The notes below the pieces were generated by a model. That model had not been told where the DNA came from. It worked only from the letters and a program-made list of their open reading frames with translations, and searched no databases. Source: an uncultured Acidobacteriota bacterium (GTDB lineage: Bacteria; Acidobacteriota; Thermoanaerobaculia; Multivoradales; SZUA-115). Taken from it: 64,000 nucleotides of DNA. The stretch is from the NCBI GenBank assembly GCA_963805975.1, contig CAWDVR010000002.1, positions 96,001-160,000 on the forward strand, read 5' to 3'. A program made the position numbers and the translations under genes. Position 1 is the first letter of the stretch, and each line of letters begins with the position of its first letter. Below, piece by piece: positions 56 to 24,493 of this stretch.

Positions 56-3000
56 TCAGGGCCTTTGTGGGGCCTCGACGATGCGGATGGCTTGGCGGCT
101 GGTGCTGAGCGCAACGGCTGTCAGGTCGGGCGCTTTTCCGCGCTGTAGAAAAGCCTCGTCGAGCAGCGGCGCAAGCGGCCCCAAGCGCTCGCGCTCGCCA
201 CGGCTGAGGCCGGAGAGCCGCGGCAAGCGCAGGGGCGAGAAGTCGATGGGCTCGGCGCTGGCGATCAGCAACAGCACATCGACCCCCAGAGGCTTGGTTA
301 CCTGAAATACCTCGTTCAAGGTCCGGGGCCTGGGCTTGGCACTTGCCCTTTCACGCGCTCCGGGAGGCGGCCAGATCACGGCGATGTCTCCATCGGACAT
401 CAAGTCGAGCACCGAGATGAAGGCGGCATCGTCACTGCCGGTGATCCGCAGCTCGAAGAGGCTGTCGAGCGGCAGCTCGATCTCCTCTCCGAGCGTGCGC
501 ACCTGTTCTCGCGGATGGGCGACTACGCGACAGCTCTGGCGCGTCCCCGTGGTCGGGTCGGGGCAGTCCAGGAAGTCGACCGGCACCACCTCGAGCTCGG
601 TGTGCAGGCGCGCATCGTACAAATCGAGCCGGCGCAGGTAGCGGTTCAGCGCCAGCCGGGGCGCGAGATCGGTCGCGGTGTCGCGGACCAGGAAAGCGCG
701 TGCCGTGACGAGCTCGTCGTAGGCCACCGGCGAGGCCAGCTCGGCAATCGCTTCGTAAGGGGAGGCCTCCGAGATGCGAGCACCGGTGAGTGGATCGCCG
801 ACCGCGGGCCCGGAGGCTCCTGCCGGATGGATCTCCAGCTCGGAGCCGACGGTGAGACCGGCCAGCAATCCAGGCCGCAGGCGGACCCATCGGTCCTTGC
901 CGGCGATCGGGATCACCGTAAAGTACGGCAGCTGCCACGTCATCGGGGCTTCCAGGAAAAGCGGGCTGTCGAGCACGCCCTCGGCCTGAAGAACATTCGA
1001 CACCTTGCCGCGCAAGGCGGCTCGGGCTCGCTCGGCCAGCTCGCGATAGGTGAGCGGCGGTGGATCCTGAGCCAGCTCCCGGCTGATCGCCCACGTCAGA
1101 CTGCCCACGCGTTCCAGGTCGTGGCGCTTCACTTCGAGCGCCCGCTCCCCGGAACGCGACGCGGAGAGCACGATCAAGGGCGCCAAGCCCTCTTCATGGA
1201 TTTTCATCCCGCGCACGCCGTCGACGAGCCCCGAGATCATGTCTTCGCCCCGCGCCCCGGTGCCGGAGTGGCAGGCGTCCAGCAGCACCACGACTTGCCC
1301 TGTCGGCCCCAATCGGCGGCGCAACCGCTCGAGCAGCTCGCCCAAAGCGTCGTCGCGCAGATAGCGCTCGATACCTTCGCCGAGCGCACCCGGAGCTTCG
1401 TCGACAGGGGCGTCATACGGCACCAGCGCTTCGTCATAGCCGTCGAGCTCGTCACCGGGCTCGTCGTCGGGCAGCAGGCGGCCGTGGCTCGCCACGAAGA
1501 GCAGCGCCAGGTCCCCAGGTCGACTGGGCTCGATCAGCGCTTGCTCGACGGCGCTCACGATCCCGGCGCGAGTGGCATCGCGATTCAGCAACTCGCGGAT
1601 CGCCGACGGCGAGAATCCTCGGCTCTCGAGCGTGGTTCGCATCAGCACCACGTCTTGCTCCGAGGCGATCCTGCGCCAACCACTGCCGGCGGGGTATTCA
1701 CCGATCCCGACCAGGAGAGCGCGCCTGGCGGCAGGGCCGCGAGCGGCCCGCGGCGCGGGCAGCACCGCCGCTTCCGGCTCGGGAGGAGGCGGGGCCATCT
1801 CACCCGTCAGCGTGAAGGCTCCCCAGAAATAAGGAGCTCGAAAACGCTCGTCCGCGAGCAGCGCCAGCTGCGCCTGGCGCAGGGCCTCGCTGGCCGGCTG
1901 GCCCGCACGCAGCAAGCGATAGAACGAGACGGTGAGCTCCGCCGCCGCGAGGTCGTCGATCTTCCACAAGGTGGAAACCACGGCCGGACTGCCGGAGTAG
2001 AGGATGGCGCGCGCCAGGCTGGCGACCTCGTCACCGGCGCTGCGCTTGCCGAGCGCGGTCTCACAGGCCGAGAGCATCACGAGATTGACGCCGGAAAGAT
2101 CCACGCCGCTCAGCAGCTCGTGCACCTCCAGATTGCCGTCCTGGGCCTCGTCCGGTGCCAGGGCGATGCGTGTGAACGAAGAGCTGTTGGCGTTGTAGAG
2201 CCCGTGGGCCGCCAAGTGAACGAGATCGATCTTGCCGCCGAGGCCGTGCAGCTTGCTCTCGGTGGCTTCGCCGTCCAGCCAAGGCCGAGTACCCCAGATC
2301 TCGGCCACTTGACGCGCTTCGGCAGCGGCACCCGGCAAGAGAGGCAGCCGAGGGTCGGTGGCGGCCGGTGCTCCCAGGACGAGCGCACGGCCCTCGAAGG
2401 AGGTTTCCTTGGCGCGCAGAAATGGCAAGGCACTCGCCGACGGCAGGTACGACAACGTGTAGTCCTCGAGCAGGTACCTGCCCGTGTCCGGGTCCCGCAG
2501 GGTGGCGAAGGGAAGGTAATGGAGCACGCCGTGCGGAACGAGCACCACCCTCGTGCTCCCGAGCTTGGTCTTGAGAGGTGAGAACAGCCGCCGGTAGAGC
2601 CTCGTCGCACGCTCGAGGTCATCCGGACAACCGGAGATCACCTCGGCACCCCGCGTGGCGCTGCCTGCGTCGCGACCGAGCGCCGCCGAAAAGCACAGCA
2701 CGTCTTCGATCCCTGCCGTGCCCAGGTCGAGCGCAACGTGCTCGAGGCTCGTCCGGTTGGCCACCCAGACATGGGCCCTTGTCCCCGAGATGAAATAGCT
2801 CACTAGGCTTTCCGCCGGTGCCAGGCTCTGCTGCACGGCAGCGAGGTCGAGCGGCTCGATGGTGACGAGCGCGGCGTACTCGGGGCTGGTGACTTTGATG
2901 CGTGTCATCAAACCCTCGAGATCCGCCTTGGCATGGCCGATGTCCCGTTCGAGGTGGAGGCGCTCGGCGCCGGCGGCCGACGGCAGCTCGCGCTCCCAGC

Positions 3001-4978: not shown

Positions 4979-5002
4979 GGATGACCTCTCGGTTCGCCGA
5001 GC

Positions 5003-7771
5003 TCAGCGAGACAGGACGAAAGCGCCCGCTCCGAGGACAGCATCGACGAGCGAACGCGTGCGGCGGAGCCGGATCAGCTCCTCGCGCTGCACCTCTGCAA
5101 ACGCCCGCCGGGGGTCGGAGGTCGCGAAGAGTCGCGGATAGAAGCGCTCCATGAAGGCGTAGGCATCGGCATCATGGATCCGCCAAAGTGAGAACAGCAG
5201 GTGTTGTGCACCCGCGAGCCGGAAGCCGTGACGAAGCCCCAGTACCCCTTCTCCATTCGGCGCCTCTCCCAGGCCCGTTTCACAGGCCGACAAGACGCAG
5301 AGCCAGGTGCGCGTGAGGTCCAGGCCGGCGATCTCGTCGGCGTTCAGGAAACCGTCGTGGTCCGGCGCGAGGGCTTCTGCACTCTCCGGCTTCTGCTGGG
5401 CGAGGTGGAGGTAGCCCCGCAGCAGGGGAGAGCGAGCGCTGGCCGGCGCCGCCGTGGACGGTAATCGCAGGAAGCTGCCGTGAGTTGCAAAGTGCAGGAC
5501 ACGCGCCGACGGTTGTCGCGCAACCACCTCTTCACGGGCCTGGTCACCAGTCAGCACACGAGCCTGCCAGCCCTGTTGCTTGGCCACGGACGCCACGAAA
5601 CGGGCCTCGCTTTCGGGCAATGCCAGCCGCGCGTCGTTTCTCCCGACGGCCAGCAGCGTCTTCTCGGCTGCCGACACAGCCGGCTGGAGAAGCTGGCGGC
5701 CGGAGGTGATGTACAGGATAGTGAAGTCTTCGGCGACGAAGCGATCATCCTCTCCCGGCAGTGCGGCCCACGGCACGAAGTGTAGCGCTGCGTCCGGGCT
5801 GAGGATGACAGCTTGCGTGCCTTCCGGAAGCGCCGTGGCCAAGGGCTGCCAGAACCGACGATGGAGCCGGCGCAGGGTGGCGAGAAAAGCCTCGGTGTCC
5901 TCACACGGCCCGGAAGCCTCCGAGCCGCGCCCGCGGATCGCCAGGCAATCTCCCAGCCGGGCGATCTGCTCTTCGATCTCGGCTGCGGCTCCCAGCAGAA
6001 TCCAGCGTGGGCTCCGGTTGGCGGAGATGAGCAACGCCCCATAGTGCGGTACCAGCCGGCGGTTGGCATCCAACTGCTCGAAGCGCACCATCTCGATCAA
6101 GACCTGCCGTGGCTCAAGGGCTGCCTGCACGCGCTCGAGGTCGACGTCGAACACCCGCTCGACCACCGGCATGCTCAGCGACTTGGCGAGCGCCGTCTCC
6201 TCCGCTTCGAGCCTGCGCTCCAGGAGCTCGAAGCCGGGGACGTCGACCTTCTTGCCGGTGCCCTCGCCGAGCTTGGCCATGAGCTCCCGCTTGAGGGCGC
6301 GGATGCGGTCCAATCGCTCGCGGTCGCCCGCCTGTGTGCTGCGCCGCGCCAAGGCGCGCTCGTAGAACAACGATGCAGAGACGGCTCCCTTCATCGTCAG
6401 CACGGCGTCGGCGAGCGGACGTGGCTCGCCCAGGTTCGCCAGCAGGTCATACGGGAACGTCTGTTTCCGATAGCTCAAGCGCTGGGCCTCGGAGCCAAAG
6501 CTCAGGATCTGTCCCAGGTGCTTCCGGTCGAGCACCATCGCCGCTTCGGCAAGTTTCCTGGCCTGATCCGAATCGCCACGCTGCTGCGCGATCACGGCCC
6601 GCCCTTTCATCAGGGCCGCCGAGAGCGGGTGCTGTTGCGATCCGTGAGCGGCCCACAGATTCTCGGCACGTAGCAGAAGCTGATCCGCCTCGGCGAGATC
6701 GTTCTCGGCCAGCGCCATCATCGCGAGATTCGACAGCGAGGCCACCAGCTTGGCCGGCGCGGTGCCGGCCTGGGCTTCGAGAATCGCCAGCGCTTCTCCC
6801 AGATGTTGCTTCGCCCGGCCGACATCACCGGCTTCGAGGGCAACCAGCGCGAGGTTTCCCAGCACGGTTGCTCGCTCTTCGCTTTTCGGGTGCGTGAGAT
6901 CGACCGCCTGCAGCAATCTCGCCTCGGCCTCCTGGAATCGCTCGAGGCCACGCAGGGCCTCGCCGAGATCGTTGAACAGAGCGAGCCGAACCTTGGCATC
7001 GGGTGCGGGCGAGCCTGCCAGGAGCTTCTCGTCGATCGCGCGGGCCCGCTCGTGATCGCCCATCGTCAGACGCAGCGCTGCCCAGTTGTGCTGGGTGATC
7101 ACGAGCTCTCTTGTCCGACTTGGCCCGAGCCCCTCGAGCAAGGCGATCGCTTCGAGGTAGGCGGCATCGGCCTGCTCCCAATCTCCCAAATGGGTAGCCG
7201 CGCTGGCCAGGTTCTGCCAGACAATCGCCCGCTCGGCTGCGCGGGATGGCGCGGGCAGAGCTTCTAAGGCGCGGGCGAAGATCTCGGCTGCCGCATCGAT
7301 CTCGCCCCACTGGAGGCGGATCATGCCCATGTTGTTGTAGAGCCAGCCGAGGTCCGGGCGCCCCGCGACCTGTGCTTCGAGGATGCGTCGCGCCTGCTCG
7401 TAGTAGGTCTGGGCACGGTCGAGATCGCCGATGGCGCCGTAGAGCTGTGCCAGAAAACCGAGGCTGCGTCCGACTGCGGCACTGTTCTCACCCTGAAGAG
7501 TGCGTGCTGCCTGCGTGAGCACCTCGAGCGCGGGAATCGCCGCCGCCGCGGATTCGCGGGGCACGGCGGGCAGCCCTGGGATGTTCACAAAGCCGCCGCC
7601 TTCTCCTGCTGCAGCGGCGGGTATGGGCCTGCGGGCTTCGAGTCGCTCGGCCGCTGTGCGGGTAGCCCGGACAGCCCAGATCAACACTCCCGTGCCCAGG
7701 ACTAGCAGAGGCAACAGGCAGCCCAGGCAGAACACCTTGAGCACGCGCCGCAGCCGTATCGCCTTGCTCAT
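5003..7771 (-). CDS. Membrane-anchored TPR-CHAT protease
   Basis: Basic N-terminus then hydrophobic TM; kinesin-light-chain-like TPRs (WLYNNMG, WQNLAS, LFNDLG, LSNLA); CHAT dyad VLHFATHG...VLSACETGLG; ATG 7771 chosen, GTG 7786 is an alternative. Confidence 0.88.
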   Translation of the reverse strand: MSKAIRLRRVLKVFCLGCLLPLLVLGTGVLIWAVRATRTAAERLEARRPIPAAAAGEGGGFVNIPGLPAVPRESAAAAIPALEVLTQAARTLQGENSAAVGRSLGFLAQLYGAIGDLDRAQTYYEQARRILEAQVAGRPDLGWLYNNMGMIRLQWGEIDAAAEIFARALEALPAPSRAAERAIVWQNLASAATHLGDWEQADAAYLEAIALLEGLGPSRTRELVITQHNWAALRLTMGDHERARAIDEKLLAGSPAPDAKVRLALFNDLGEALRGLERFQEAEARLLQAVDLTHPKSEERATVLGNLALVALEAGDVGRAKQHLGEALAILEAQAGTAPAKLVASLSNLAMMALAENDLAEADQLLLRAENLWAAHGSQQHPLSAALMKGRAVIAQQRGDSDQARKLAEAAMVLDRKHLGQILSFGSEAQRLSYRKQTFPYDLLANLGEPRPLADAVLTMKGAVSASLFYERALARRSTQAGDRERLDRIRALKRELMAKLGEGTGKKVDVPGFELLERRLEAEETALAKSLSMPVVERVFDVDLERVQAALEPRQVLIEMVRFEQLDANRRLVPHYGALLISANRSPRWILLGAAAEIEEQIARLGDCLAIRGRGSEASGPCEDTEAFLATLRRLHRRFWQPLATALPEGTQAVILSPDAALHFVPWAALPGEDDRFVAEDFTILYITSGRQLLQPAVSAAEKTLLAVGRNDARLALPESEARFVASVAKQQGWQARVLTGDQAREEVVARQPSARVLHFATHGSFLRLPSTAAPASARSPLLRGYLHLAQQKPESAEALAPDHDGFLNADEIAGLDLTRTWLCVLSACETGLGEAPNGEGVLGLRHGFRLAGAQHLLFSLWRIHDADAYAFMERFYPRLFATSDPRRAFAEVQREELIRLRRTRSLVDAVLGAGAFVLSR

Positions 7772-7794
7772 CCTCGTGCCTTCCACGCTTCCGA

Positions 7795-7823
7795 AGACAC
7801 GCCAAGAGCACTTTCAGGGGGTG
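7795..7823 (-). promoter_or_regulatory. Candidate ECF-type promoter CACCCCC-N16-GTGTCT
   Basis: Intergenic, just upstream of the 7771 CHAT gene; same GTGTCT -10-like hexamer as the other motifs in the window. Confidence 0.35.
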
Positions 7824-7832: not shown

Positions 7833-8642
7833 CTATGCGGGCGGAATCTCGATCCGGTCGGCGAAGACCTGCGCTTCCGTTCCGGACGAAGAGATACCGA
7901 CGACACGGATCTCGTAGCGCCCCGGGGCCAGCGCCGCCCTGGAAAGGGCCACTGAAAAAGTGGCATCGGGCAGCAGCTTCAGCCCTGACCGGCTCCACAG
8001 AGGCTGCTCTCCCATGCGATCCATCGAGCGCACTTCCAGACGGTAGTCGTCGTAGGGTTGTGGATCCAGAGTCGCCAGCTGGAGAAAGAGCACATCGCCG
8101 CTCCCTTCCAGTCGTCGGGGCGCGACCTCCACGGGTGAGGAGCCACGCGGTGCCAGCGGTGCCAATCGGTGGAATTCGACATTGATCTGAACGCCCGAGG
8201 TCGCGGCCAGGCGCTGCTCAGCCCCCAGTCGCCCGGCCCGCTCCTGATACCCCCAGAGCGCGAGCCCCAGGATCGCCAACAGCGAGGCTGCCAGCAGGGC
8301 GAGAGCGGGAAGACGGCGATCTCGACGGTCCGGCCCACGCTGCCGCGCACCGGACCGGATGCGGCCCTGGATCTTCTTCCAATCCTGCGCCAGCTCCTCG
8401 GGCGATAGATGACCGGGCTCCCCTCGAGTCGCGGCGGGAGGAAAGGCGGCGAATTGGCTCGCCAGCAGCGCAGCTTCCGGATCGAGGGCAATCGCCTCTT
8501 CGACCCGCTCGCGCTCTTCTGCGGCGAGCTCGTCATTGAGGTATGCGAAAATATCTTCGGCACTAACCTTCATTTCGGGTCGCCGGCGCAGCTCGGCGGC
8601 CAAACCCTCGAGAGCGACCGAAAGTTCTTTGTTTCGCTTCAC
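7833..8642 (-). CDS. Putative transmembrane anti-sigma factor
   Basis: Directly downstream of the ECF sigma; zf-HC2-like N-terminus (EDIFAYLNDELAAEERERVEEAIALDPEA), single TM, Ig-like extracytoplasmic C-terminus (LAPGRYEIRV). Confidence 0.75.
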   Translation of the reverse strand: MKRNKELSVALEGLAAELRRRPEMKVSAEDIFAYLNDELAAEERERVEEAIALDPEAALLASQFAAFPPAATRGEPGHLSPEELAQDWKKIQGRIRSGARQRGPDRRDRRLPALALLAASLLAILGLALWGYQERAGRLGAEQRLAATSGVQINVEFHRLAPLAPRGSSPVEVAPRRLEGSGDVLFLQLATLDPQPYDDYRLEVRSMDRMGEQPLWSRSGLKLLPDATFSVALSRAALAPGRYEIRVVGISSSGTEAQVFADRIEIPPA

Positions 8643-8665: not shown

Positions 8666-9223
8666 CTAGTCGAGGCGCAGCCGCGTGCCGCTCAGCATCC
8701 GTTTCAGGGTCTTCAGAGCATCATGGCGCAGACTCTTGACCGTCTCGACCGAGATCGCAAGCAGCTCCGCGATCTCTTTGTAGCTGTGATCCTGATTCTG
8801 CAGCAGGATCACGTGTCGCTGACGGGGCGAGAGCTCCTTGATCGCAGTCCGCAGCAGCCCGAGTGCCTCTTCGATCTCCAGCTTCTTGTCGGCCGGCATA
8901 TCCTGACTTAGCAGCTGCCAAGAAATCAGCATTTCGCCCGGCAAGCTCGATTCCGCATCGATTGCAACCCTCTGACCACTACGCATCTTGGCTCTCCGGT
9001 AGCGAATCTCGTTGGACCAGACGCCGTGGATGATCGTAAAGAGCCATGTCTTCTCGGAAGATTCGTCGCGGAACGTGCCACGGTATTGATAGACACGTAC
9101 AAAAACATCTTGTGCTAGATCGCGAGCCTCGTCCTTGGAGCAGCCGCGGGCGACAAAGAAAGCCACGACGCGCGGATACCACGCCGCATAGAAGCGTTCG
9201 AACCACTGGTCATCTCTGTTCAC
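8666..9223 (-). CDS. ECF-family RNA polymerase sigma factor
   Basis: Region 2 ARDLAQDVFVRVY...TWLFTI; region 4.2 LSPRQRHVILL...SYKEIAELLAISVETVKS; 185 aa. Confidence 0.93.
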   Translation of the reverse strand: MNRDDQWFERFYAAWYPRVVAFFVARGCSKDEARDLAQDVFVRVYQYRGTFRDESSEKTWLFTIIHGVWSNEIRYRRAKMRSGQRVAIDAESSLPGEMLISWQLLSQDMPADKKLEIEEALGLLRTAIKELSPRQRHVILLQNQDHSYKEIAELLAISVETVKSLRHDALKTLKRMLSGTRLRLD

Positions 9224-9410
9224 GGGCCCTCCGCTGAATCGATCCTAGCAGTATTCCGCCAGCCCTCTTCGTGCTGGGTTGGCAACCTTCGAGCACGCAC
9301 ACTTTCTGCTAGCCTCTGAGAAAGCAATTTCGACCATCCAAGATGCAGCCTGCCCCCTCGCCAGCGACGCTCTGGAACTGACCGGCATTGCCGTGGAGGT
9401 ATCTAGATCC

Positions 9411-12400
9411 ATGAGATTCGGCCTTTGGGTCCCGACCAGTCTGATCGTCCTCCTCGGCTCTGCTTGCATCGGTCGCTCTCCCGCCGACGAGAGGGCGTCG
9501 ATGGAGCCGCTCGCCCGTCCTTTTCCGGTACGTCTCTCCGTCCCGACCACGTATCTCCCTTGCGCGCTCGACGTGGCTCCGGGCCCTCTCCCGCGCAATC
9601 CGCGATGTCCGGAGCCGTCCACTGCAGCCCCCCCCTCTTCCGTTCACGATGTGTCTATAGACACGGCTGAGCAAGCTCGCGGGGTAGCGGGTAGCCATCG
9701 CAGCGCCATCGCGGCGCTGCTCAAGGCCAGTGAGTCTTACGACTTCGAGGAGGCGTTCTCGTTGTTCGAGGCCGAGCTTCAGAATTCGAGCTCCGCGGCG
9801 CTGCTGAACGATTTCGCAGCGGCCCATTGGGTGCGGTCCCAACAGCTCGATCAACCGGTGGACCTCGTGCGGAGCTTGGAATTGGTCCGGCAAGCGGTCG
9901 AGGCCGACGAGAGCTTCGCCCCGGCAATGTTCAACGCCGGCCTGCTCTGTCGATCCCTGGGGCTTTCTTGGTGCGAGCGCGAGGCCTGGGAGCGCTACTT
10001 GCGATTGGACTCGGACCCTTCCTCGCCGTGGGCGCAAGAGGCTCGCCAGCACCAAGCCCGGCTCGCATGGCCGTCGCTCCAATCCCTGGCACAAGCAAAG
10101 ATGGGACTCGAAGAGGCTGTCACCAAGCGTGACTCGGTGCGCCTGCGCCACTTGGTGGCTTCACACCCGGGAACCGCCGAAGCGTGGGCGCTGGACGTTC
10201 TTCTCGGCAAATGGGCTGCGGCCGTGGAGCAAAAGCAGGCGGCTCACGCCGCCGCGCTGCTCGCCGATGCGCGGCTCATCGCCGATGAGACCGGGGCCAC
10301 TCGTCGCAATCGCCCGCTGTCGGCTGCGGTGGCGGCCATCGAGCGTGCCGGGCAAACAGACTCCGAGGCGGCTCGCCTCGCATCCCTCGTCCGCGGCCAC
10401 GCGTCCTACGCTCGAGGCATACAGCGATTCACCACCGATTACGAGCCTGCCGCTCGACACTTCACCGCCGCGCGACAGGCGCTCGCGCAGGGCGGCAGTC
10501 CGTTCGCCCTCGTCGCAGAGCTCCAACGCATCACGTGCCTGATGCGCAACAACGAGTACGAACGCGGGCTCGATGCACTTCGTCGCCTCGAGCGTGAAGA
10601 GGGTATTTTGCCGCCCGCGCTCGGCGGGCGAGTGTATTGGCTGCGCAGTTTTGCCGAAACCCATCAGCGACGGCTTCTCGAAGCCATCGATTCGTACCGC
10701 CAGGCGGTCGCTCTCTACGAACAGGCGGAAGACGCCTCGAGCCTTTTCTGGGCAGAGTGGCGGCTCGCCGAGCTGCTCGACTTGGTCGGGCAGACCGAGG
10801 TGGCATGGCAGCACCGCTATCGTGAGCTGGCACGCCTCGGGAGCATAGAAGACCTGCGAGGTCGCACGTGGGCTCTCAGCGAAGCTTCGGCGGCCGTTCT
10901 CGGCCTGAATGCCAAGCACTCCGCAAAGCTCCTGCACACGGAGGCCGTTCAGGTCGGCCGACTCGCGGGAGACGATTTGATCCTCGCCGAAGCGCTCCGG
11001 AAGAGCGCCGACGTCGCGCTAGCCAGCGGCCAGCCCGAGGAAGCTCGTGAGGCCGTGCAGGAAGCCTCCCGCATTGCCAGCGACTTCGGTCAAGGCAATG
11101 CCTCTGACGCCGTCGAGCTCAAGATTCTCCAAATCGAGGGACGCTTGGCGCTGCCTTCGGAGCCAGCTCGAGCGCTGGCCAAGTTCGAAGCGGCGAGCGC
11201 GCTTGCCCGTACTCTCGGCCAAACGATTTATCTCCCCGAGCTGCACGCTGAGCGTGCCGAGGCGCTGGGACTGCTGCACCGCTTCGCCGAGCGCGAGGAG
11301 GCGCTCGATGCCGCCGTACTGCTGGTCGAAGAGGAATGGGAGGCGGCGCTCAAAGAGCGTTCTCCGGGCGATTACGAGGCGCTGTGGCCAACTTATTTCG
11401 GCCCGGGCCGAAAATCTTTCGATCGCCTCATCGAGGCGTTGGTTCTCGAAGGAAAGTTGGACCGCGCCCTCACGGTTGCCGAGCGTGCCCGGGCCCGCGA
11501 GGTCCTCGACCTGCTACGCGATCCGGCGGCATTGCAGAGTGGTCTGAGGAGTTTTTTCCGGGGCGAAACCCGTCCGTTGACCGTAGCGGAGCTGATCGCC
11601 CGGCTTCCCCCCAAAACGGCCGTGGTCGAGTTCGCGCTGACGGAGGATCGGCTGTTCACCTGGGTGCTGGCGCGGGACGGAGTCCGATTTTTCCACGAGC
11701 AGCCGGCCGGGCCGGTGCTGGCGCAGGAGATCGAGAGCGCGATCGACGCTATCCGCTCGAGCACGCAGCAGTTTGAGATCGAAAGGCGTCTGGCCGCGCC
11801 CTTCGATCGCCTGATCAGGCCGCTCGACGGTTACCTCCGAGAGGCGGAACACCTGGTCTTCATCCCGGACGGCGCTCTCCATGCCTTGCCGTTCGCAGCG
11901 CTCTACGACCGTTCGACACGCCGTTTCCTGATCGAGAGCCATCCTGTGGCCATCACCCCCAGCGCGACGCTCTATGCCTACGCCCTGGAGCGCAATCGCG
12001 AGCTCGCCGCCATCGAGCGCCGGGCCCCGAAGAGTGAGCCTGGGCTCTTGGCCGTCTGCGACCCCGCCTTTCCGGCCGAGAAGTTCCCTGCCCTGAGCCG
12101 CCTCTCGGGCGCGGCCGCCGAGTGCACTGCCGTCGCCGAGCAATATCCGAGCTCGACCCTTCTGGCCGGCGAGACGGCGACGAAACGCCAGTTCCTGACG
12201 GAGCTGAGCCGGCACTCGGTGCTTCACTTCGCCGGCCATGCCATCGGGCACCCGTCGGCAGCCTACATCGTGCTGGCGGCGGACTCGTCGGACGAGCTCG
12301 GCATCCTGTACGCCAGCGATCTTCTTTCCCGGGAGACCGGTCGGACCCGCATCGCCGTTCTTTCGGCTTGCAGCTCGGTTGCCGAGCAGGCGGCGCGCGG

Positions 12401-15835: not shown

Positions 15836-18800
15836 TCACTCTGGAGCATCAGGCTCCGGAGGCAGGGCGCGTCCGATCAGGATCTGGCCCAGCAGGGCCG
15901 GGTAGCTGCGCATCGGCTTTTGGAAACCTCCTGAAGCCGACTCGACCTGGGCCGACACGTGACGATAGAGCTCGTCGAGGTCGATCAGGCCGTCTCCCGA
16001 GCTGTCCGCGGCGCCGCGCAATCCCTCGAGCAGGTAGTAGGTGAAGAGGCCGTGCTCGAGACGGTTGTCTTCGACCGCCACCTGGTTGGGCTCGCTGGCC
16101 GCGAGGATCGCCCGCCCACTGCCGGCGCTCGCCAGGCGGCTCAAGAACTCCGCGCTCAGACTGTTGCGCACAGAGCCGTTACCGCCGAAAACGGTGCGCC
16201 CGCCCGCGGTCGAGGCACCGCTGAAGCAGCTGTCGATCATCACCACCACGCGCTCGGCGCGATAACGCCGCAGGATCAGCTCGAGCTCGCTCATGGGCAG
16301 TGCCGAGCTGTAGAGATCTGCCGATACCGCGTCGACGGGCAGGAAGTATTTGGTGAGGCCGTCGGGCTCCGCAATGCCGATGGCTTGTTCCGGCATGCCG
16401 TGCCCGGCTAGGAAGAGGATCACGGTGTCCCCGGCGCTCGTGGCACGCTGTGGCAGCACGGTACCGAGAAGGCTCCGTACCTCCCGCAGCGTCGCCTGTT
16501 CGTTCGTTCGCACGAAGACCTGCTCGGCCGGCAGATCCAACGCAGTGCGGAAATAAGCGGCCACCGCCTCGGCGTCTTTGTGGGCATAGCGCAATGGCCG
16601 AATCGCGGTGTCCTGGTAGGAGCTCACACCGATAGCCACCAGCCAAACACGCCGACTCTCATCGTCTCGATAGAGCGACAGCACCCGAACGCCGCGCTGG
16701 CCATCAGCGGTGATGGCGGTCACTTCGAAGCGGTTCTCACCGCGGGCGAGCTGCACCGGCAACTCGTAAGTGCTCGCATTCAAGCTCCCGTCACGCACGG
16801 TTCTCGCGGGTGACGAATCCAGGGCGACCGGACGGTCGTTCAGGCGCAGGCGGACGTCTTCGAGCTCCGTGGCATGCTGAATCTCGAAGCGAAGGACGAT
16901 GGCTTCCTGCGCCACCTTCTCGCCGAACTGCTGCCGGAGAAAGGAGATCGTCGGTGCCAAGACGGCTCGCGCCGGCGTGGCGGGCTGTGGCACCGGCTCT
17001 GGTGGAGCGGCACTCATCACCACGGGCGCCTGCTCGACCACCCTCACCGCGGCATTTGTCCGTAGTGGTGCGAAATCCCGCTGCGTCACCGAGACGACGA
17101 GCGGAGCCTCGCCCGGCCCAGCACCGGTACGCACGGAGATCGGCACACGGATCCGCCGCGCGCCTCGTGATGGGACGATGTCCAGCAGAACCTCGCGCTT
17201 GGTTCTCGGCAGCCCCAAGTCGTCGAGCAGGTCCACTCCGGGCATCGAGCTTTCGAGCGTGACCTGTACTTGCTCGGCGGCGAGGTCCCCGCTGTTGCGC
17301 AGCTCCAAGGAGAGCTCCCGGGCCGTGCCGCGCTCGAGCTCCACGACCGAGGGAACGCTCAGCTCGAGCTGGGGCTGGAGGCTCCAGAACTCGACGGGCA
17401 GATCCTGGACGAGATCCGGAAAGCCGTCTTGGCGAATGCGCGCCGTCAACGGGAGGCGAGCTGGCTGCGCTCCTGCTCCGAAGCCCCGCGGCAGGCTCAG
17501 CACCACCCATTGGCTGCGGCTCGTCGCACCCGCCGGTAGCGTGCCGAAGTCGACTTGAGCCGGCTTCGGCTGCAGGAGGTCGGTGCTCGAGGCCAGCTCC
17601 AGTCGCACGTTCTCCGAGGACAACGACCCGTCGTTGCTGACCGCGAGGATCAACTCGACGGTCTCACCATTGTTCGCAATACCATCGGAGTTCCCTCTCG
17701 AGCCGGGTGAAGCTCCATCCGCGAGTTGAGTCGTAACCCGCAGCCGTGGCGCTCGGGCGACCGTGCTCCACCCCTGCTGACGTGTGGTCGACGCGGCCAG
17801 CTCGCCTCGGCCATCAACTGCCGAGAAAGTGAGCTGCAGCTGTGGGGCCAGCCCATTGCGCGAGACTGCGAGCAGAAAGCGGCTCTCGGCGATGTCGTGG
17901 CTCGCCAGGCGCTGGATGATGCCCGGCGTGGACAGCACGTGGACGCTTGCCAGCGGCTCCAGTAGCCCAACGCGAACGCCAAGGGCATCGCCCGCTCCCG
18001 AGTTGCGCACTCGAACGACAACCTCGACCGTCTCCCCGGCTCCGGGGAGGCCGTCACCATCCCCGACAGCGGGCGGCGTGGCGTCGTTGATGGCGACGTC
18101 AAAAATCTCGAGCGCCGGTGACGCGAAGCTCACCGCCGCCACCTCGAGAAGAATGGAGCGGGCCGCATAGCCACGGTTCTCGAGCACCTCGGCGCGCAGA
18201 GCGATCGGTCGGGCAGGTAGGCCCAAAGTGCTGTGGAAGCTGATCTCGTACACCAGGTCGGCACCGACACCGAGGTCGCCGAGCCCCGTGACCGCCGGTA
18301 CGATCAGCGACGGCTCGTCGGACGACAACCGGAGGCTAAGACCGAAAGCTTTGCCCGGGCCTTCGTTGCGCACCTTCACGCGGAGCCGAGCCGCTTCGCC
18401 GGCGTCCAGGCGACCGTTGGGCAGGAGACTGTCGTTGTCATCCAGCTCGATCGAGGCGAGAAGGGTCGCGGGCGCCGTCGACAGGCGCTCGAAAGAATCG
18501 AGCACACGGCGCAGGGACGGTGATCCCCGTAAGCTTTGGATGCAGCTCGAAATCGCCAGACGGAATGCATCCTCCGTGTAGGCTTCGACGAGAAGCGCCG
18601 GACTCCAGAAGTTAAACCCCTTTCGGTCCTCACCCGAGCAGTCCACGGTCACAATGGGTGCGTGCGCTCCATCGAACAGCTCCAGCTGCAATTGCGCTTG
18701 AACACCGGGGCCTGCTCCTCCCGGAGCACCAAGGACTTTGGTTGAGAAGCTGTAGACCGCCTCGAGCAGATGCGGCTCCTGCGGGGGGATTGGCGTGCTT

Positions 18801-19252
18801 TTGCGCTTTCTGGAGGTGGGCGCTATACCCGCCGGGAAGAGCTGCTCGAAAGTGCTCGTCAGCGCTTCTCCGAGGGCTTGGTCCAAGTAAATCGGAATAG
18901 AGATCCCCTGGACCAGATAGTCGCCCGAGACGCTCTCTATATCTTTCTGCAATGGGCTCAGCATGTTGTCGAGTCGACGCTTGAAGTCCCCCTCACGGAT
19001 GTAGATATCTCCGTAGTAGGCCGTGGCATCCGTGTTGCCGGGCTTGGAGGTCACACGGACCGCGATCGGGAAGCGGGATTCGAGGGGACTGATCGGCTCC
19101 GGTACCAGCTCGTCCACGTCGGGCATGGCAGACATCACTTTCCACACGACTTCGGCAGCTAGCGCGCTCGGCGAAGGTTGGAAAATCAAGAAGCCAACCA
19201 TGACGGCCCCTCGACTCACACTCCAGAAGATTCGCACGATCAGGTTCCCCAT
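15836..19252 (-). CDS. Exported caspase-family (peptidase C14) protein with tandem Ig-like (CARDB-like) domains
   Basis: Repeats NGRLDAGE..VRNEG, DGDGLPGAGE..VRNSG, NSDGIANNGE..VSNDG; C-terminal LVAIGVSSY...LRYAHKDA...FLAGHG...IDSCFSG...GLFTYYLLEGL; start overlaps the upstream stop. Confidence 0.88.
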   Translation of the reverse strand: MGNLIVRIFWSVSRGAVMVGFLIFQPSPSALAAEVVWKVMSAMPDVDELVPEPISPLESRFPIAVRVTSKPGNTDATAYYGDIYIREGDFKRRLDNMLSPLQKDIESVSGDYLVQGISIPIYLDQALGEALTSTFEQLFPAGIAPTSRKRKSTPIPPQEPHLLEAVYSFSTKVLGAPGGAGPGVQAQLQLELFDGAHAPIVTVDCSGEDRKGFNFWSPALLVEAYTEDAFRLAISSCIQSLRGSPSLRRVLDSFERLSTAPATLLASIELDDNDSLLPNGRLDAGEAARLRVKVRNEGPGKAFGLSLRLSSDEPSLIVPAVTGLGDLGVGADLVYEISFHSTLGLPARPIALRAEVLENRGYAARSILLEVAAVSFASPALEIFDVAINDATPPAVGDGDGLPGAGETVEVVVRVRNSGAGDALGVRVGLLEPLASVHVLSTPGIIQRLASHDIAESRFLLAVSRNGLAPQLQLTFSAVDGRGELAASTTRQQGWSTVARAPRLRVTTQLADGASPGSRGNSDGIANNGETVELILAVSNDGSLSSENVRLELASSTDLLQPKPAQVDFGTLPAGATSRSQWVVLSLPRGFGAGAQPARLPLTARIRQDGFPDLVQDLPVEFWSLQPQLELSVPSVVELERGTARELSLELRNSGDLAAEQVQVTLESSMPGVDLLDDLGLPRTKREVLLDIVPSRGARRIRVPISVRTGAGPGEAPLVVSVTQRDFAPLRTNAAVRVVEQAPVVMSAAPPEPVPQPATPARAVLAPTISFLRQQFGEKVAQEAIVLRFEIQHATELEDVRLRLNDRPVALDSSPARTVRDGSLNASTYELPVQLARGENRFEVTAITADGQRGVRVLSLYRDDESRRVWLVAIGVSSYQDTAIRPLRYAHKDAEAVAAYFRTALDLPAEQVFVRTNEQATLREVRSLLGTVLPQRATSAGDTVILFLAGHGMPEQAIGIAEPDGLTKYFLPVDAVSADLYSSALPMSELELILRRYRAERVVVMIDSCFSGASTAGGRTVFGGNGSVRNSLSAEFLSRLASAGSGRAILAASEPNQVAVEDNRLEHGLFTYYLLEGLRGAADSSGDGLIDLDELYRHVSAQVESASGGFQKPMRSYPALLGQILIGRALPPEPDAPE

Positions 19253-21798
19253 TGCGCTTTTGGATCGCCGGTCAGCGTGAAGCCTGCCCAATAGTAAGGC
19301 GCCGAGGTTGACTCTTCGCGCAGCAGCTCGATCTGTGCGCCCCGCAATGCTTCGGCCACGGAGGAGCCGGCCTTCCAGCGGCGGTAGAAACGATTCATGA
19401 GCTTCTCGGTGGCGGCATCATCGGCGTTCCAGAGGCTCGAGACGACACCCGGCGAGCCGGCATACAGAAAGCCGCGCATCAGGCTCTCGATCTCGTCTCC
19501 TCGGCTCGGCTCTCCGGTCGCTGTCTGGCAGGCTGCCAGCACGACCAGGTTGACTCCGGAGAGATCGAGCCGCGAGTAGATCTCGTGCACTTCCAGGTTG
19601 CCGTCATACCCCGCACCGGTCGCCAACACGATGCGGCTGAAGCGCGGGCTCGCCGGCATGTATTCGCCGTGCGCCGCGAAATGCACGATGTCGACCGTGC
19701 CATCGAGCTTCGCCAGCGCGGCCTCGCTGGCGGCGGGGCCGAGGAGGACCTCGCCGGCGAGCAGCTTGCCCAGCCCCACGGCCTCGCGGCCCATACCAAC
19801 GGCGGCTTTATACTGCCGCTCCTCGCGCTCGGGTGCTCCCCACACCCGGGCCTTGCCCGTGAACGGCGATTCTTTCGCGCGCAGGAAGCGCAGGGCACTG
19901 GCGCTGGGAACGTAGGTGAGCGTGAAGTCCTCGATGAGATAGCGGCCGGTGGCGGGCTCTCTGAGCGCCGCGAAGGGAACGCTGTGCAGAGGCCCGTGAG
20001 GGATCAGGATCAGCTTGGAGTGGTGGACAAACGGTAGCAGCGGCTCGAAGAGCTGCTGATAGAGCTGGACGAGGCTCGACTGCTCGGCCATGCAGTGCTC
20101 CGGAACAGAGCCGCGCACCGCCATCGAAGCGGTTTCGACACGACAGGTGAGCGGCACGATCGGCCCGCTCGGCAGCGGCAGCACGAGCGGCTCGAACGAG
20201 TCCCGCTCCACCACCCAAGCATGGATACTTTGATCGGTGACGAAGAAACTGATGAGCGTGACGTCGGAGTCGAGCTGGGCTTGGAGCTGGTCGACATCCA
20301 CCGGCCGAGCGGTGACCAGAGAGCCGAGCTCTGCGTCCTCCAGAGCCGTGCGAGCGGTCAGCCCCTGGAATTGCCGCCGTTGGTCCAGCAGCTCCTTTTC
20401 CTTGGCCTCGCGCCCCGCCCCGGTGGCGCGGGCCAGCTCTTTCTCGAGATCGACCAGGCGCTGCCGGAAGACCGTCGATTCCGCGGTGCTTCTGAGCAGG
20501 CGAGCGGGATCACGGTCGGCCCCCACGGCCCGCAGGAGCGCGCGGGCACGGGCTTGTTCTGCGACCAGGAAGGCCTCGCGAGGCCGCTGCTCGAGCACCA
20601 GCATCTCGAGCAGGCTCTGGTACGCAACGCGGCCGGGGCCGGCATGGTAGGTGGCGAGCAGGTCGAGCGTGCTCATCGTGCCGGTGGCCTCCTCGAGACA
20701 GGCCACGGCGGCTGCGGCCGCGTCGATCGCTTCAGGGAAGCGGTGTTGATACCAGAGCGCCCGGCTGAGGCTCGCGAGGGAGGGCGCCGCGCTCTCAGCG
20801 CTGCCGGCTCGCAGAGAGCGCCTCACATCCAGGCCCCAGAGGCGAATCGCGTCCTCGAACCGCCCCTGTTGAAAAGCCCGCAAGGCCGCCAGCAGCTGGC
20901 CTCGGGGTGAGCCCGGATCGGCCTGCCGTCGGTGGGTGGCCAGAGACTCACCACGATAGGCACAGCGTCTTTGTACGGTGGCGTGGGCCGCAGTGATCGC
21001 CACTCGACCACCGGCGGCGGAAGGACTCTTGCCGGCAGCATGGATTTCGTCGAGCCGGGGATCGAGGCGGATCCCCTGGCGATGGAATGCGGCCACGCTG
21101 GCTGCCAGGCCTGCCGTGCTTCGCATGAGCAAGAGGTTCGCGGCGAAGCCCAACTCTTTGAGCCTCGCCGCAAGCTCACTCTGGGCTGAGTCCGCGGCGG
21201 TTTGGTGCCCGACCAAATGGTAGTAGAGCGTCAGGATCGCCAGCGACTGAAGCTCTAATTGGCGAGCGAGGACTCGTTCGAGCGGGTGGCGAGGCTGGAC
21301 CTGGCGGCTGAGCGCCTTCGTTTTCTCGAGGTCGTGAATGACCTGTTCGTAGCGCCCGGCTTCGGCATCGAGCACGGCCTGCTGGAAGAAACCTCCCGCC
21401 TGCCAGAGCACGCCGTCCGGACGGTCCGCCTCTCGCAGGAGGCTCTGATTCACGCTCTCGGCAGCCGACAGATAGCCCGCCATCTGTAGCAGAAAGACCC
21501 GCTGCAGGAGAACCGTGAGGTAGACTCTCCGGTCACCCGCCAGCCTGGCATAGCTCTGTGCCCGTTCATTGGCTGTCAGCGCGGCGCCGGTTCGGCCCTG
21601 CAATCTGCGGGTTTCCGCGCCGAGCAGAGAGTACGTGGCGAGGCCCAGGCCCAGCTGGCGCATCACCGACGGCGAAGCTCGAAACGTCGCGCGCCACAGG
21701 GTTTCCCACGCCGCCCAGGTCTGTAAGGAGGTCGCGGTCAGGAGCACCACGCCGAGTGCGAGGTGCCGCAAGGCTCTATTCGAGAGGAGTGTGGTCAT
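19240..21798 (-). CDS. Exported TPR-CHAT protease
   Basis: N-terminal hydrophobic segment; EQARAR; dyad DIVHFAAHG...LVVLAACQT; PYYWAGFTLTG. Confidence 0.88.
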   Translation of the reverse strand: MTTLLSNRALRHLALGVVLLTATSLQTWAAWETLWRATFRASPSVMRQLGLGLATYSLLGAETRRLQGRTGAALTANERAQSYARLAGDRRVYLTVLLQRVFLLQMAGYLSAAESVNQSLLREADRPDGVLWQAGGFFQQAVLDAEAGRYEQVIHDLEKTKALSRQVQPRHPLERVLARQLELQSLAILTLYYHLVGHQTAADSAQSELAARLKELGFAANLLLMRSTAGLAASVAAFHRQGIRLDPRLDEIHAAGKSPSAAGGRVAITAAHATVQRRCAYRGESLATHRRQADPGSPRGQLLAALRAFQQGRFEDAIRLWGLDVRRSLRAGSAESAAPSLASLSRALWYQHRFPEAIDAAAAAVACLEEATGTMSTLDLLATYHAGPGRVAYQSLLEMLVLEQRPREAFLVAEQARARALLRAVGADRDPARLLRSTAESTVFRQRLVDLEKELARATGAGREAKEKELLDQRRQFQGLTARTALEDAELGSLVTARPVDVDQLQAQLDSDVTLISFFVTDQSIHAWVVERDSFEPLVLPLPSGPIVPLTCRVETASMAVRGSVPEHCMAEQSSLVQLYQQLFEPLLPFVHHSKLILIPHGPLHSVPFAALREPATGRYLIEDFTLTYVPSASALRFLRAKESPFTGKARVWGAPEREERQYKAAVGMGREAVGLGKLLAGEVLLGPAASEAALAKLDGTVDIVHFAAHGEYMPASPRFSRIVLATGAGYDGNLEVHEIYSRLDLSGVNLVVLAACQTATGEPSRGDEIESLMRGFLYAGSPGVVSSLWNADDAATEKLMNRFYRRWKAGSSVAEALRGAQIELLREESTSAPYYWAGFTLTGDPKAQWGT

Positions 21799-24493
21799 CG
21801 CGCGCAGATCCTCGGAGACTCGCCCGGTGGCTCTTGGTTTCGATCCATCGTGCTTGCGGATCTCCGGCGAGGGTGTAGCCCGCCCAATAGAAAGGCGCGG
21901 CGAAGCGTTCCTGGGCGAGCAGCGACAGCTGCGCTCCGCGAAGCGCCTCCGCCACCGGCGCGCCCGCTTTCAGGCGGCGATAGAAAGCGGTCATGAGCTC
22001 CGCAGAAGCAACATCGTCAACGCTCCAGAGGGTCGAGATCACGCCCGGACTGCCGGCGTAGAGGAAGGCGCGTGTCAGGCCCACGATCTCGTCACCGCCG
22101 CTGTGCTCACCCAAAGCTGTTTCACAGGCGGAGAGGACAACCAGGTTGACGCCCGTCAGGTCGAGCTCGGAGTAGATCTCGTGTACCTCCAGGTTGCCGT
22201 CGTCTTTGCCGTCCCTGGAAGGAGAAAGTGCCAGGCGGCTGAACCCCGCGCTCCGCGGAAAGTAGAGGCCGTGCGCCGCGACATGGACGATGTCGACCTC
22301 GCCCTCCAGCTCTTTGAGCGCCGACTCGCTGGCGGCCATGCCGAGCAAGGGTTCGGTGCCCAGAAGCTCTGCCACCTCCTCGGCCTCGCGGCGGCTTCCC
22401 GCCAGCGGCGGCAACTCGGGGTCGGCAGGGATGGGCTCTCCGAGCACCAAGGCGCGGCCGGTGAATGGAGACTCCTTGTGGCGGAGGTACTGGAGAACGC
22501 TGGCGCTCGGGGCGTAGGTGAGCGTGAAGTCCTCGATCAGATAGCGGCCGGTGGCCGGATCCCGCAGCGCGGCGAAGGGAACGTAGTGCAGGACGCCGTG
22601 GGGAATGAGGATCAGCTTGGAGCTGTGCAGATGAGGCCGTAGCGGTGCAATGAGCTGTTGATAAAGACCCTCCGCATTCTGGTCCGCGGTGCTGCAGCCG
22701 GCGAGCGGCTCGCTGCCTCGAACGCTGTGCCTCACCGCGTCGGAGAAGCACAGCGGAGTGGAGACTTCGCCCTCGAACGGCGGCAGAGAGAACCAGCTGA
22801 AGGTGTCACGGTCGATCACCCAGGCATGGATGCGGAAATCCGTGACGAAGAAGCTGATCAGGGTGACACCCGGCTCGAGCGCGGCCTGCACTTGGGCCGC
22901 TTCCACAGGATGGGCCTTGACCACGGAGGCGAGCTCTGGGTCCAGGGCCACGGTTCGAGCACGCAGGCCTTCGTGGAGCTGGCGCAACTGGAGCAGCGTC
23001 GACTCCATGGCCCGTCGTTCGTCACCGATCGCCAAGGCCATCTGCCGCTCGGTTACAACGATGCGTGCGGCGAGCTGGTCCAGGTCCCGAGAGAATGAGC
23101 TCGCGTGGGAGCGTTGCTGCACGGGACGGGTGTTGCCCAGCGCCTGGAGCAGGGCTCGGGCCTTGGCCAGCTCGGCGACGGCGAAAGCCTCCCTCGTGCG
23201 CAGCTCCAGGCTCAACATCTCGAGCAGCGCGTGGTAGAAGAGACGCGTGACCCCACCACGGTAGGCCTGAATCGATTCCTGCCGCTGATTCAAGTCTCCA
23301 GCCACCTCGAAGCAGGCGACGGCGGAGGCCGCGCGCTCGATCGCTTCGTCGAACCGACCCTGCAGCCAAAGAGCAGCGCTCAGGCCGGAGAGGTGAATCC
23401 CGGCGAGCTGCGCGTCGCCCACTCGGAGCTCTTCCGCCAGCGCGATCTCCCAGGCCCGAATGGCTCCTGTACGGTCGCCCAGATGGTAGAGGATGGGAGC
23501 CCAAATCCCGGTGCGCCATGCCTTCGTGCGGTGGAACTGGCCCAGGCCGACCGCCAGCGTTTGGTCGCCGTTGGCGCAACGGCTCGCGCCTGGAATTCCT
23601 CCTGCGCTTTGCCGCAGAGTACCCGGCGCAGCTTGGGGGCCTTGTCGTTGCAACGAGCGATGGATTCCAGCAAAGTCCATCCTGAGCTTCTGCTTCTCGC
23701 CGAGCCATATCTGAAACGAGCCCAGCTTGCGGATGGCCTCGGCCGTCGTCGTTGCAAAAGGCAGATGATGCTCGTCGAGCATGCGCTCGAGCTCCCTGGC
23801 CGCACTCGAGCTGCCCCTTCCTGGGCCGAGCATGCTGTAGACAGAGGGCAGGAGCGTCGTCGCGGTCCATTCGGTCAGCGTGGCTATCAGCTGTTCGAGC
23901 AGGGCGCTCTGAGGCTCCCTGGCCAACATTCGTGATTGTTCGAGGTAGGCAATACCTTCCTCGTATCGCCCGTCCAAGGCCAGAATAAGACCCCGTTGGG
24001 CTTGCGCCACCGCGGTCATGGCTCGGTTGTTGCTACGCTCGGCAGCGGACATAATTTCTTCGTTGGTTTCGAGCGCGGCGTCAGGATATCCGAAGGCCAG
24101 TAGCAGCCTGGAGCGATGCATGAGAACGCTGGGGTAGGCCCAGGGGTGGAACGAGAGGCGGGCGAAGAGCAAGGCACGGTCGTTCTTCTCCAGGGCCGCG
24201 CTCGGGTTGCCGCGCATGGTTTCGAGCTCGGCGCTCCAGAGCAGCCGCGTCGTCTCCATCATGCTCAGGAAACGGTACCCGTATGCAGACTCCGCAGGGA
24301 TCACCAGCTCTTCGTCAGCGCCGTGATGCCATAGGCCGCGCATCGCCAGTCTGACGGACGCCGCCATCAGGGCGAGCTGCGCCAATGTCGCGCCGACGAG
24401 CAGTCCCGACAGCAAGACCTGGCGTAGCGGGTGGCTCCGTGGGCGGACGCTGCCGAGAGCTTTCGGCTCCTCGCTTCGAGGTCCCACTCTCAC
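21776..24493 (-). CDS. Exported TPR-CHAT protease (paralog of 19240-21798)
   Basis: N-terminal TM; ELAKAR; dyad DIVHVAAHG...LVVLSACET; PFYWAGYTLAG; GTGA overlap with the upstream gene. Confidence 0.88.
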   Translation of the reverse strand: MRVGPRSEEPKALGSVRPRSHPLRQVLLSGLLVGATLAQLALMAASVRLAMRGLWHHGADEELVIPAESAYGYRFLSMMETTRLLWSAELETMRGNPSAALEKNDRALLFARLSFHPWAYPSVLMHRSRLLLAFGYPDAALETNEEIMSAAERSNNRAMTAVAQAQRGLILALDGRYEEGIAYLEQSRMLAREPQSALLEQLIATLTEWTATTLLPSVYSMLGPGRGSSSAARELERMLDEHHLPFATTTAEAIRKLGSFQIWLGEKQKLRMDFAGIHRSLQRQGPQAAPGTLRQSAGGIPGASRCANGDQTLAVGLGQFHRTKAWRTGIWAPILYHLGDRTGAIRAWEIALAEELRVGDAQLAGIHLSGLSAALWLQGRFDEAIERAASAVACFEVAGDLNQRQESIQAYRGGVTRLFYHALLEMLSLELRTREAFAVAELAKARALLQALGNTRPVQQRSHASSFSRDLDQLAARIVVTERQMALAIGDERRAMESTLLQLRQLHEGLRARTVALDPELASVVKAHPVEAAQVQAALEPGVTLISFFVTDFRIHAWVIDRDTFSWFSLPPFEGEVSTPLCFSDAVRHSVRGSEPLAGCSTADQNAEGLYQQLIAPLRPHLHSSKLILIPHGVLHYVPFAALRDPATGRYLIEDFTLTYAPSASVLQYLRHKESPFTGRALVLGEPIPADPELPPLAGSRREAEEVAELLGTEPLLGMAASESALKELEGEVDIVHVAAHGLYFPRSAGFSRLALSPSRDGKDDGNLEVHEIYSELDLTGVNLVVLSACETALGEHSGGDEIVGLTRAFLYAGSPGVISTLWSVDDVASAELMTAFYRRLKAGAPVAEALRGAQLSLLAQERFAAPFYWAGYTLAGDPQARWIETKSHRASLRGSARDDHTPLE

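Follow-up and report, generated by a model that had tools for sequence, protein, structure and literature searches.

Our analysis of a 64,000-nucleotide stretch from an uncultured Acidobacteriota bacterium (assembly GCA_963805975.1, contig CAWDVR010000002.1, positions 96,001 to 160,000; the window hereafter) showed that four of its CHAT proteases preceded by tetratricopeptide repeats (TPR), here named proteins A, B, D and E, carry a loop in which an Arg-Gly pair is flanked by two Cys residues (the clamp), while the plus-strand TPR-CHAT protein C is unclamped. Homologue comparisons indicated that this loop feature is real and strongly selected. We tentatively interpret Arg|Gly as a regulatory cut site on the hairpin tip of TPR-CHAT proteins that are predicted to be exported, closed by a disulfide, where a nick by an Arg-specific clan CD enzyme would activate the protease and be relayed to an anti-sigma factor; we place the probability of this reading just short of even. 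It builds on observed features, namely the conserved motif, two Cys that are kept or lost jointly, a clamp with two origins, and Arg-Gly pairs at aligned positions of the anti-sigma factor, metacaspase and partner protein encoded alongside; from these we infer that a disulfide forms, that the loop is cut and the protease thereby activated, and in which order this happens. The interpretation given in the initial annotation was partly supported.

Minus-strand translation of the window matched exactly the four Cys..Arg-Gly..Cys peptides and their coordinates as given in the initial annotation of this DNA (Table 1). The four proteins matched CHAT (PF12770, clan CD) with 184-249 bits against a cut-off of 24, and all had an intact His-Cys dyad, which was invariant in 103 of 103 aligned rows, as was a Glu in helix alpha-1 (103/103). 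All four loops aligned immediately before an LY..L..PL helix, in the helical hairpin of the pseudo-protease half of the domain. The claim that they occupy the same position held exactly for three of them (A, D and E), whereas the first Cys of B lay, as judged by eye, about one helical turn later. The reported absence of the loop from the plus-strand CHAT was borne out, as the hairpin of protein C was short and contained neither Cys nor a loop Arg-Gly. Within this genome, 4 of 19 scored CHAT regions carried the clamp.

Table 1. Coordinates of the TPR-CHAT proteins, their clamped loops and neighbouring features in the window.
Feature	Position	Strand	Details
Protein A	56..4978	-	1640 aa; signal peptide, TPR, CHAT (His925/Cys972), C14 metacaspase domain, DUF4384-like tail
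Clamped loop of A	2627..2695	-	C762, R776-G777 (Arg codon 2651-2653), C784
Two Arg-Gly sites in C14 domain of A	1208..1258	-	loop after catalytic Cys
Protein B	5003..7786	-	N-terminal hydrophobic segment, TPR, CHAT from a distant clade
Clamped loop of B	5903..5947	-	C614, RGRG (R618, R620; Arg codons 5933-5935, 5927-5929), C628
Protein D	19240..21798	-	signal peptide, TPR-like helices, CHAT (His710/Cys757)
Clamped loop of D	20092..20145	-	C552, R562-G563 (Arg codon 20113-20115), C569
Protein E	21776..24493	-	N-terminal hydrophobic segment, TPR, CHAT (alpha-1 Glu703, His741, Cys790)
Clamped loop of E	22694..22750	-	C582, R592-G593 (Arg codon 22718-22720), C600
Protein C	9279..12674	+	TPR-CHAT of another clade; short hairpin (11739-11783), no clamp; dyad intact
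Anti-sigma factor	7833..8642	-	predicted single-pass membrane protein; weak antisigma match, below cut-off
Arg-Gly of anti-sigma factor	within 8142-8153	-	36 residues after membrane helix; aligned across cassettes
ECF sigma factor	8666..9223	-	
361-aa partner	12678..13763	+	conserved in cassette; C-terminal Arg-Gly..Cys (13707-13736)
CARDB/NEW3-repeat protein	15836..19291	-	C-terminal C14 domain, intact dyad; directly downstream of D
Transposase	56161..57657	-	DUF772 + DDE_Tnp_1

Conservation of the loop was determined from the best 120 of 3,490 matches to the CHAT region of E (alignment A1), two rows of which were D and E themselves. The loop Arg was found in 120 of 120 rows and was followed only by Gly (112) or Ser (8), with mostly Val (65) or Ala (34) at the P2' position. 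Both clamp Cys were present in 117 rows and neither in 3, and a single Cys did not occur, which supports the paired role given to the two Cys in the initial annotation. Spacing from Arg to the second Cys was 8 or 9 residues in 111 of 117 rows, and the first Cys was located 2 to 22 residues ahead of the Arg. Among 19 Arg-rich columns of A1 the loop Arg had the least conserved neighbours (mean top-residue frequency 0.40). Shuffling of the 35 called window proteins gave an expectation of 0.87 occurrences of a loose C..R[GS]..C pattern at any place in them; it was observed at the same position in four CHATs and elsewhere in these proteins only in one Cys-rich Zn-binding domain.

The clamp was found in 15 of 98 scored CHAT domains (78 genome loci), all 15 from records titled Thermoanaerobaculia or Acidobacteria, and a class-wide search returned a match at E 1e-60 or better in 8 of 151 genomes. 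A generic CHAT sample of 173 domains was drawn from 141 new top matches of a profile search and is biased towards the query profile; its hairpins were short in 162 cases and long in 11, with R[GS] in 8 of the 11 long hairpins versus 9 of the 162 short ones, and the five hairpins containing a Cys pair all enclosed R[GS]. These counts indicate that the loop is a minority insertion among CHATs that usually bears Arg-Gly. Of 21 relatives of B, picked by rank and tree position, 4 were clamped, 14 lacked the Cys pair but had an Arg-Gly loop and 3 had short hairpins, and in two cyanobacterial genomes (30 loci) R[GS] occurred in 8 of 11 scorable hairpins, six of these eight being devoid of Cys. Because sister clades and cyanobacterial CHATs keep the Arg-Gly loop without Cys, the sequences identify Arg-Gly as the wider feature and the clamp as an add-on, which amends the initial interpretation. 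Since unclamped relatives retain Arg-Gly, a disulfide would be dispensable for basic function and would only tether or tune. Cys pairs without Arg-Gly were also recorded in the same hairpin of five other CHATs (P0218, P0221, P0225, P0235 and L071:2-5077).

Phylogenetic analysis was performed on 346 rows using only columns after the loop (10 of 356 rows were dropped as duplicate, incomplete or without the dyad). Clamped tips were placed in two distant clades: the clade of A, D and E was clamped in 133 of its 137 tips, that of B in 4 of 17. The approximately unbiased test rejected a monophyletic grouping of the clamped with the secondarily unclamped sequences (p-AU 4.6e-62, on a selected 40-row subset and for a group named after the tree had been seen). 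Three separate lineages lost the clamp, and each loss removed both Cys. The tree thus indicates that the clamp arose at least twice and that B's version is independent; loop transfer between neighbouring genes may be an alternative, which leaves B's shifted Cys unexplained. In two cyanobacterial CHATs (L105 and L107, genome G152), the same hairpin loop ended in a tight Cys-Arg-Gly-x-x-Cys, which may be a third origin of a clamp. A CHAT from a record titled as a Klebsiella pneumoniae metagenome-assembled genome (L025) branched among Chloroflexota and Acidobacteriota sequences, and its label may be wrong.

Outside the window, a further clamped TPR-CHAT of this genome (L099; contig C3, 9095-13586) is split by a frameshift near C3:13122-13129, which may be an assembly error, and sits inside a second full copy of the gene cassette described below. 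The same contig encodes, between two C14 genes, another CHAT of the clamp clade (L100; 30510-33833). Both of its Cys have been lost and its long loop contains no Arg-Gly, which makes it a natural control.

Two AlphaFold models of E (mean predicted local distance difference test score, pLDDT, 82.1 and 88.8) showed the hairpin as a strand, helix 578-588 containing C582, loop 589-602, helices 603-614 and 616-621 and a strand, with C600 just ahead of helix 603-614; numbering follows the open reading frame (ORF), the database gene call beginning 26 codons later. Values of pLDDT below 50 fell on R592-E595 of the hairpin loop in one model and on 590-598 in the other, so that the models place Arg-Gly at a low-confidence, predicted floppy tip. 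The model with the higher mean pLDDT showed a separase/Craspase-like fold with pseudo-protease and active domains, and structural comparison matched E to Csx29 (Z 28.8, root mean square deviation 2.9, 315 residues aligned) and separase (5fc2; Z 27.4, deviation 3.1, 304 aligned) more fully than to DdvA (Z 22.5, 287 aligned). The distance from the CHAT start to the catalytic His is 198 residues here versus 160 in DdvA. The hairpin helices of E would correspond to the three-helix motif thought to complete the substrate pocket, which would bring the loop next to that pocket; this placement relative to the active site draws on PMC11506125 and on our own reasoning.

Export of the clamped CHATs, as the initial annotation had suggested, was supported at the level of prediction. 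An N-terminal hydrophobic stretch was detected by a heuristic, as distinct from a signal-peptide predictor, in 91 of 93 full-length A1 relatives versus 7.6% of 1,441 internal control windows. The two full-length rows in which both Cys are lost still have this stretch, and loss of the clamp therefore does not track loss of export. Among exported-like proteins of this genome, Cys counts were even in 197 and odd in 196, against 743 even and 915 odd in the remainder (crude gene calls), and 31 exported-like proteins had six Cys compared with 17 having five and 6 having seven. This is a modest even-Cys excess. Predicted export, strict Cys pairing, hairpin topology and the even-Cys excess all count for a disulfide, which the two clamp Cys likely form.

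Which enzyme might cut the loop was approached through specificity residues. Separase binds P1 Arg via an S1 Asp, D2151 in C. thermophilum and D2070 in human (PMC10317155, excerpt; here and below, this word marks sources represented by part of their text), and Sb Csx29 has K670 at this position (PMC9729208, excerpt), which maps by alignment to position W+8 of the clamp CHATs. An invariant Asp at W+4 was considered for Arg specificity and set aside, since every one of the 349 scored rows had it and its role is probably helix capping. The CHAT of HetF is reported to cut PatU3 at R117|S118, a cleavage for which flanking residues matter little (PMC9457339, excerpt), and a HetF ortholog, identified by the NCBIfam equivalog (1402 bits against a cut-off of 1200), had Leu at the separase S1 Asp position and the same alpha-1 Glu as the clamp CHATs. 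By analogy with gingipain R, whose Arg specificity involves one alpha-1 acid plus an L5 Trp (PMC4357240, excerpt), this Glu might contribute to S1. Sb Csx29 also aligns a Glu there (gapped alignment), so the residue is not a clean marker of Arg specificity.

A second candidate is the C14 protease encoded near some of the clamped CHATs, a metacaspase by its match to yeast Yca1 (E 3.6e-37). An alpha-1 Asp, an Asp two residues before the catalytic Cys and the His-Cys dyad, as expected of C14B metacaspases, were invariant in 17 of 17 sequences, and the S1-type Asp was aligned to Yca1 and AtMC4; the S1-type residues of TbMCA2 are D95 and D211 (PMC4357240, excerpt). Since both S1-type Asp are present in 17/17, this alignment makes it very likely that an Arg/Lys-specific enzyme is at hand in the metacaspase. 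Clamp-CHAT loci that lacked it within the fetched DNA nevertheless retain the Arg-Gly and the Cys pair, a result in favour of a CHAT, or an enzyme encoded elsewhere, as the cutter.

Comparison of loci identified a cassette common to the window and 7 of 19 distinct clamp-CHAT loci of other genomes (three re-fetched duplicates were counted once), comprising a sigma factor of the extracytoplasmic function (ECF) type, an anti-sigma factor, an unclamped TPR-CHAT, a partner of 361 aa, a metacaspase whose tail is DUF4384-like and a clamped CHAT. The anti-sigma factor was present in 6 of the 7 loci, the seventh ending before it, and in this genome a cassette metacaspase (L101) lies just left of the window. 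An Arg-Gly pair recurred at aligned positions in these neighbours. Of 8 cassette anti-sigma factors, 7 had it 20-36 residues past the membrane helix; 9 of 10 metacaspases had it closely following the catalytic Cys, and in the partners (7 of 9) it preceded a C-terminal Cys. The Arg itself was kept in all anti-sigma factors, metacaspases and partners compared. The first Arg-Gly of the C14 loop of protein A occupies the aligned position of all 10 cassette-type metacaspases (RG in 9, RA in 1).

In the mechanism that we propose, an Arg-specific clan CD enzyme, which may be the same CHAT, a sibling CHAT or the neighbouring metacaspase, would nick the Arg|Gly loop outside the cytoplasm, and a disulfide between the flanking Cys would keep the cut hairpin in one piece. 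Through the cut, the three-helix motif, which probably completes the substrate pocket, would be set free and the protease activated; clamped CHATs would switch one another on outside the cell, and at the end of the relay the anti-sigma factor would be cut at its own Arg-Gly in a site-1-type event, releasing the ECF sigma factor. In its fullest form, which we regard as possible but rather doubtful, this would be a multi-step caspase-clan zymogen cascade outside the acidobacterial cell with one shared Arg|Gly code, in which TPR-CHAT sensors, metacaspase and partner nick each other's loops and finally the anti-sigma factor, and in which two CHAT lineages would independently have closed the activation loop with a disulfide staple, yielding redox-sensitive two-chain enzymes like the animal clotting or complement zymogens on a different fold.

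Several results weigh against regulation by such a cut. At position W+8, 102 of 140 clamp CHATs have Ala and the six commonest residues do not include Asp, which counts against a separase-type pocket. The initial statement that many bacterial caspase-clan proteases cut after Arg holds for the HetF CHAT (Arg|Ser; PMC9457339, excerpt) but is not general for CHATs, as Csx29 cuts after Met or Leu and a Runella CHAT cuts Leu|Gly, requiring Gly at P1' (10.1101/2021.06.07.447441, excerpt). Autocleavage of separase leaves its activity unchanged (PMC10317155, excerpt). Cassette-type metacaspase and ECF sigma factor were both missing within the fetched DNA of 12 of the 19 clamp-CHAT loci (three contigs being short), so the cassette is not obligatory. 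DsbB (PF02600) and VKOR (PF07884) were not found in this genome, which is 96% complete, nor in five of five related genomes (G012, G079, G083, G115 and G131), which counts against a disulfide. Two DsbA-like domains were present in this genome, and together with the even-Cys excess they may point to an unrecognised oxidant.

Alternatively, the loop may be cut or bound as a substrate without activation, as a bait, as a built-in brake that occupies or delays a partner's active site, or as a neutral autocleavage mark as in separase; we consider this somewhat unlikely. A disulfide-closed loop with a basic P1 and a small P1' recalls canonical protease inhibitors such as Bowman-Birk, and the fixed distance from Arg to the second Cys fits a docked geometry. 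The loop here is long, variable in length and of low confidence in both models, in which it differs from rigid inhibitor loops, and Arg-Gly also occurs where activating cuts would be expected, namely behind the catalytic Cys of the metacaspase and, in the anti-sigma factor, outside the membrane helix. For a neutral mark speaks the attachment of separase fragments after an autocleavage without effect on activity, and separase also has auto-inhibitory loops (PMC10317155, excerpt).

An uncleaved Arg-Gly serving as a binding motif, for example as a ligand of TPRs or cassette partners, with the Cys pair as a structural disulfide, metal site or redox guard of the catalytic Cys, is in our estimate unlikely. 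In its favour are the missing separase S1 Asp in clamp CHATs, the hairpins with Cys pairs but no Arg-Gly, and the failure to find DsbB and VKOR in the six genomes searched. Two His of a nearby PH..LH motif, each at least 90% conserved in A1, could help to bind a metal, whereas the B-type clamp has Asp instead of the first His. Against it, an invariant Arg followed only by Gly or Ser agrees with what HetF requires at P1-P1' and with the P1' Gly required by the Runella CHAT (excerpts cited above), and all five Cys-pair hairpins of the generic sample enclosed R[GS]. An origin of the pattern by chance, in high-GC proteins rich in Arg and Gly, or through recent duplication is extremely improbable: Arg-Gly occurs at 0.65% of positions in window proteins and A, D and E are paralogues with 53-60% identity across the CHAT region, yet this explanation was refuted by the invariance of the Arg among variable neighbouring positions and by the gain of the B clamp in a distant clade. 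The Arg and Gly codons moreover differ among the four copies, and a recent DNA repeat as the cause was rejected.

Among characterized systems, the best structural match is Csx29 in Craspase (type III-E CRISPR), which cuts Csx30 and releases CASP-sigma/RpoE; as here, TPR, a pseudo-protease and an active CHAT are combined, and a sigma factor and inhibitor are encoded nearby. Csx29 is switched on allosterically by target RNA, whereas the window proteins have export signals and a clamped Arg-Gly loop. Scores of A, D and E against the Csx29 family (NCBIfam NF041237) were 36-41 bits, well under the cut-off of 300, B gave no match, and general family scans of 30 and 18 window ORFs, a part of the total, contained no Cas family. 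HetF of Anabaena resembles the clamp CHATs in having the alpha-1 Glu without the separase S1 Asp and in its Arg|small-residue cut site, but has an N-terminal CHAT, a membrane helix and periplasmic TPR, in contrast to TPR followed by CHAT, both after a signal peptide; the excerpt of PMC9457339 mentions no clamped activation loop, and the scanned window proteins did not match the HetF family (NF045509), their CHAT being C-terminal to the TPRs.

In Haliangium, a SAVED-CHAT activates PCaspase by cleavage (10.1101/2023.06.23.546230, excerpt). The likeness lies in a CHAT encoded with a C14 protease, sigma factor and kinase and in activation of a second protease by cleavage; according to the same excerpt, which gives no cut sites, the system is triggered by cyclic oligoadenylate. 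In our structural comparison, SAVED-CHAT matched only the catalytic half of the E model (159-368). In the window, the CHATs themselves bear the candidate site and are predicted to be exported. Myxococcus xanthus DdvA-DdvS couples an extracytoplasmic TPR-CHAT to an ECF sigma factor, and site-1 cleavage by the CHAT was proposed (PMC11506125). DdvA unites anti-sigma factor, membrane helix and TPR-CHAT in one chain and is missing the three-helix pocket motif, whereas the window encodes the anti-sigma factor and the CHATs in separate ORFs, with three helices predicted and a clamped loop. Separase (C50), similar in fold, is Arg-specific and self-cleaves with its fragments staying attached, but its S1 Asp is not kept here, and its autocleavage sites lie in insert 2 instead of this hairpin. 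The orthocaspase MaOC1 is activated by autocleavage after Arg219 (review PMC7475262, excerpt); this likeness to C14B metacaspases concerns the cassette C14 neighbour and not the CHAT hairpin, and that excerpt mentions no disulfide clamp.

A CHAT-to-caspase cascade, CHAT control of sigma factors (PMC10028731, excerpt; PMC11506125) and CHAT genes beside ECF54 sigma factors (PMC8999054, excerpt) are already known. Our literature search, whose coverage left out most subscription journals, found no publication that describes an Arg-Gly loop in CHAT domains or a Cys clamp there. The CHAT profile has more than 100,000 matching clusters (50% identity; E 1e-30 or better), while cut sites or activation routes were found in the literature for only a handful of CHATs, DdvA being the one extracytoplasmic example. 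If our interpretation is true, caspase-fold zymogens would be processed in the bacterial envelope, where a disulfide-tethered activation loop would have evolved more than once. The convergent clamp and the exact site (Arg|Gly) make the proposal cheap to test, with reducing versus non-reducing gels as the read-out and unclamped and short-hairpin relatives as natural controls.

Further observations concern the neighbouring genes. The 361-aa partner always follows the unclamped CHAT and has a conserved N-terminal Cys pair but no clear signal peptide; the spacing of its C-terminal Arg..Cys segment is the same as in the CHAT loop. It had no Pfam or NCBIfam match, and Atlas search scores were all 0.80 or less. 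Protein C and some orthologues have a Cys after the N-terminal hydrophobic stretch, suggesting a possible lipoprotein, and the Arg-Gly after the catalytic Cys of protein C was not kept in 8/8 cassette orthologues. Adjoining the CHAT cluster, positions 24490-50759 encode kinase, FHA-trypsin, zinc-ribbon-FHA and PP2C genes, then vWA proteins and a tubulin-like GTPase operon, and similar neighbours were also found at three other loci (L001, L012 and L013).

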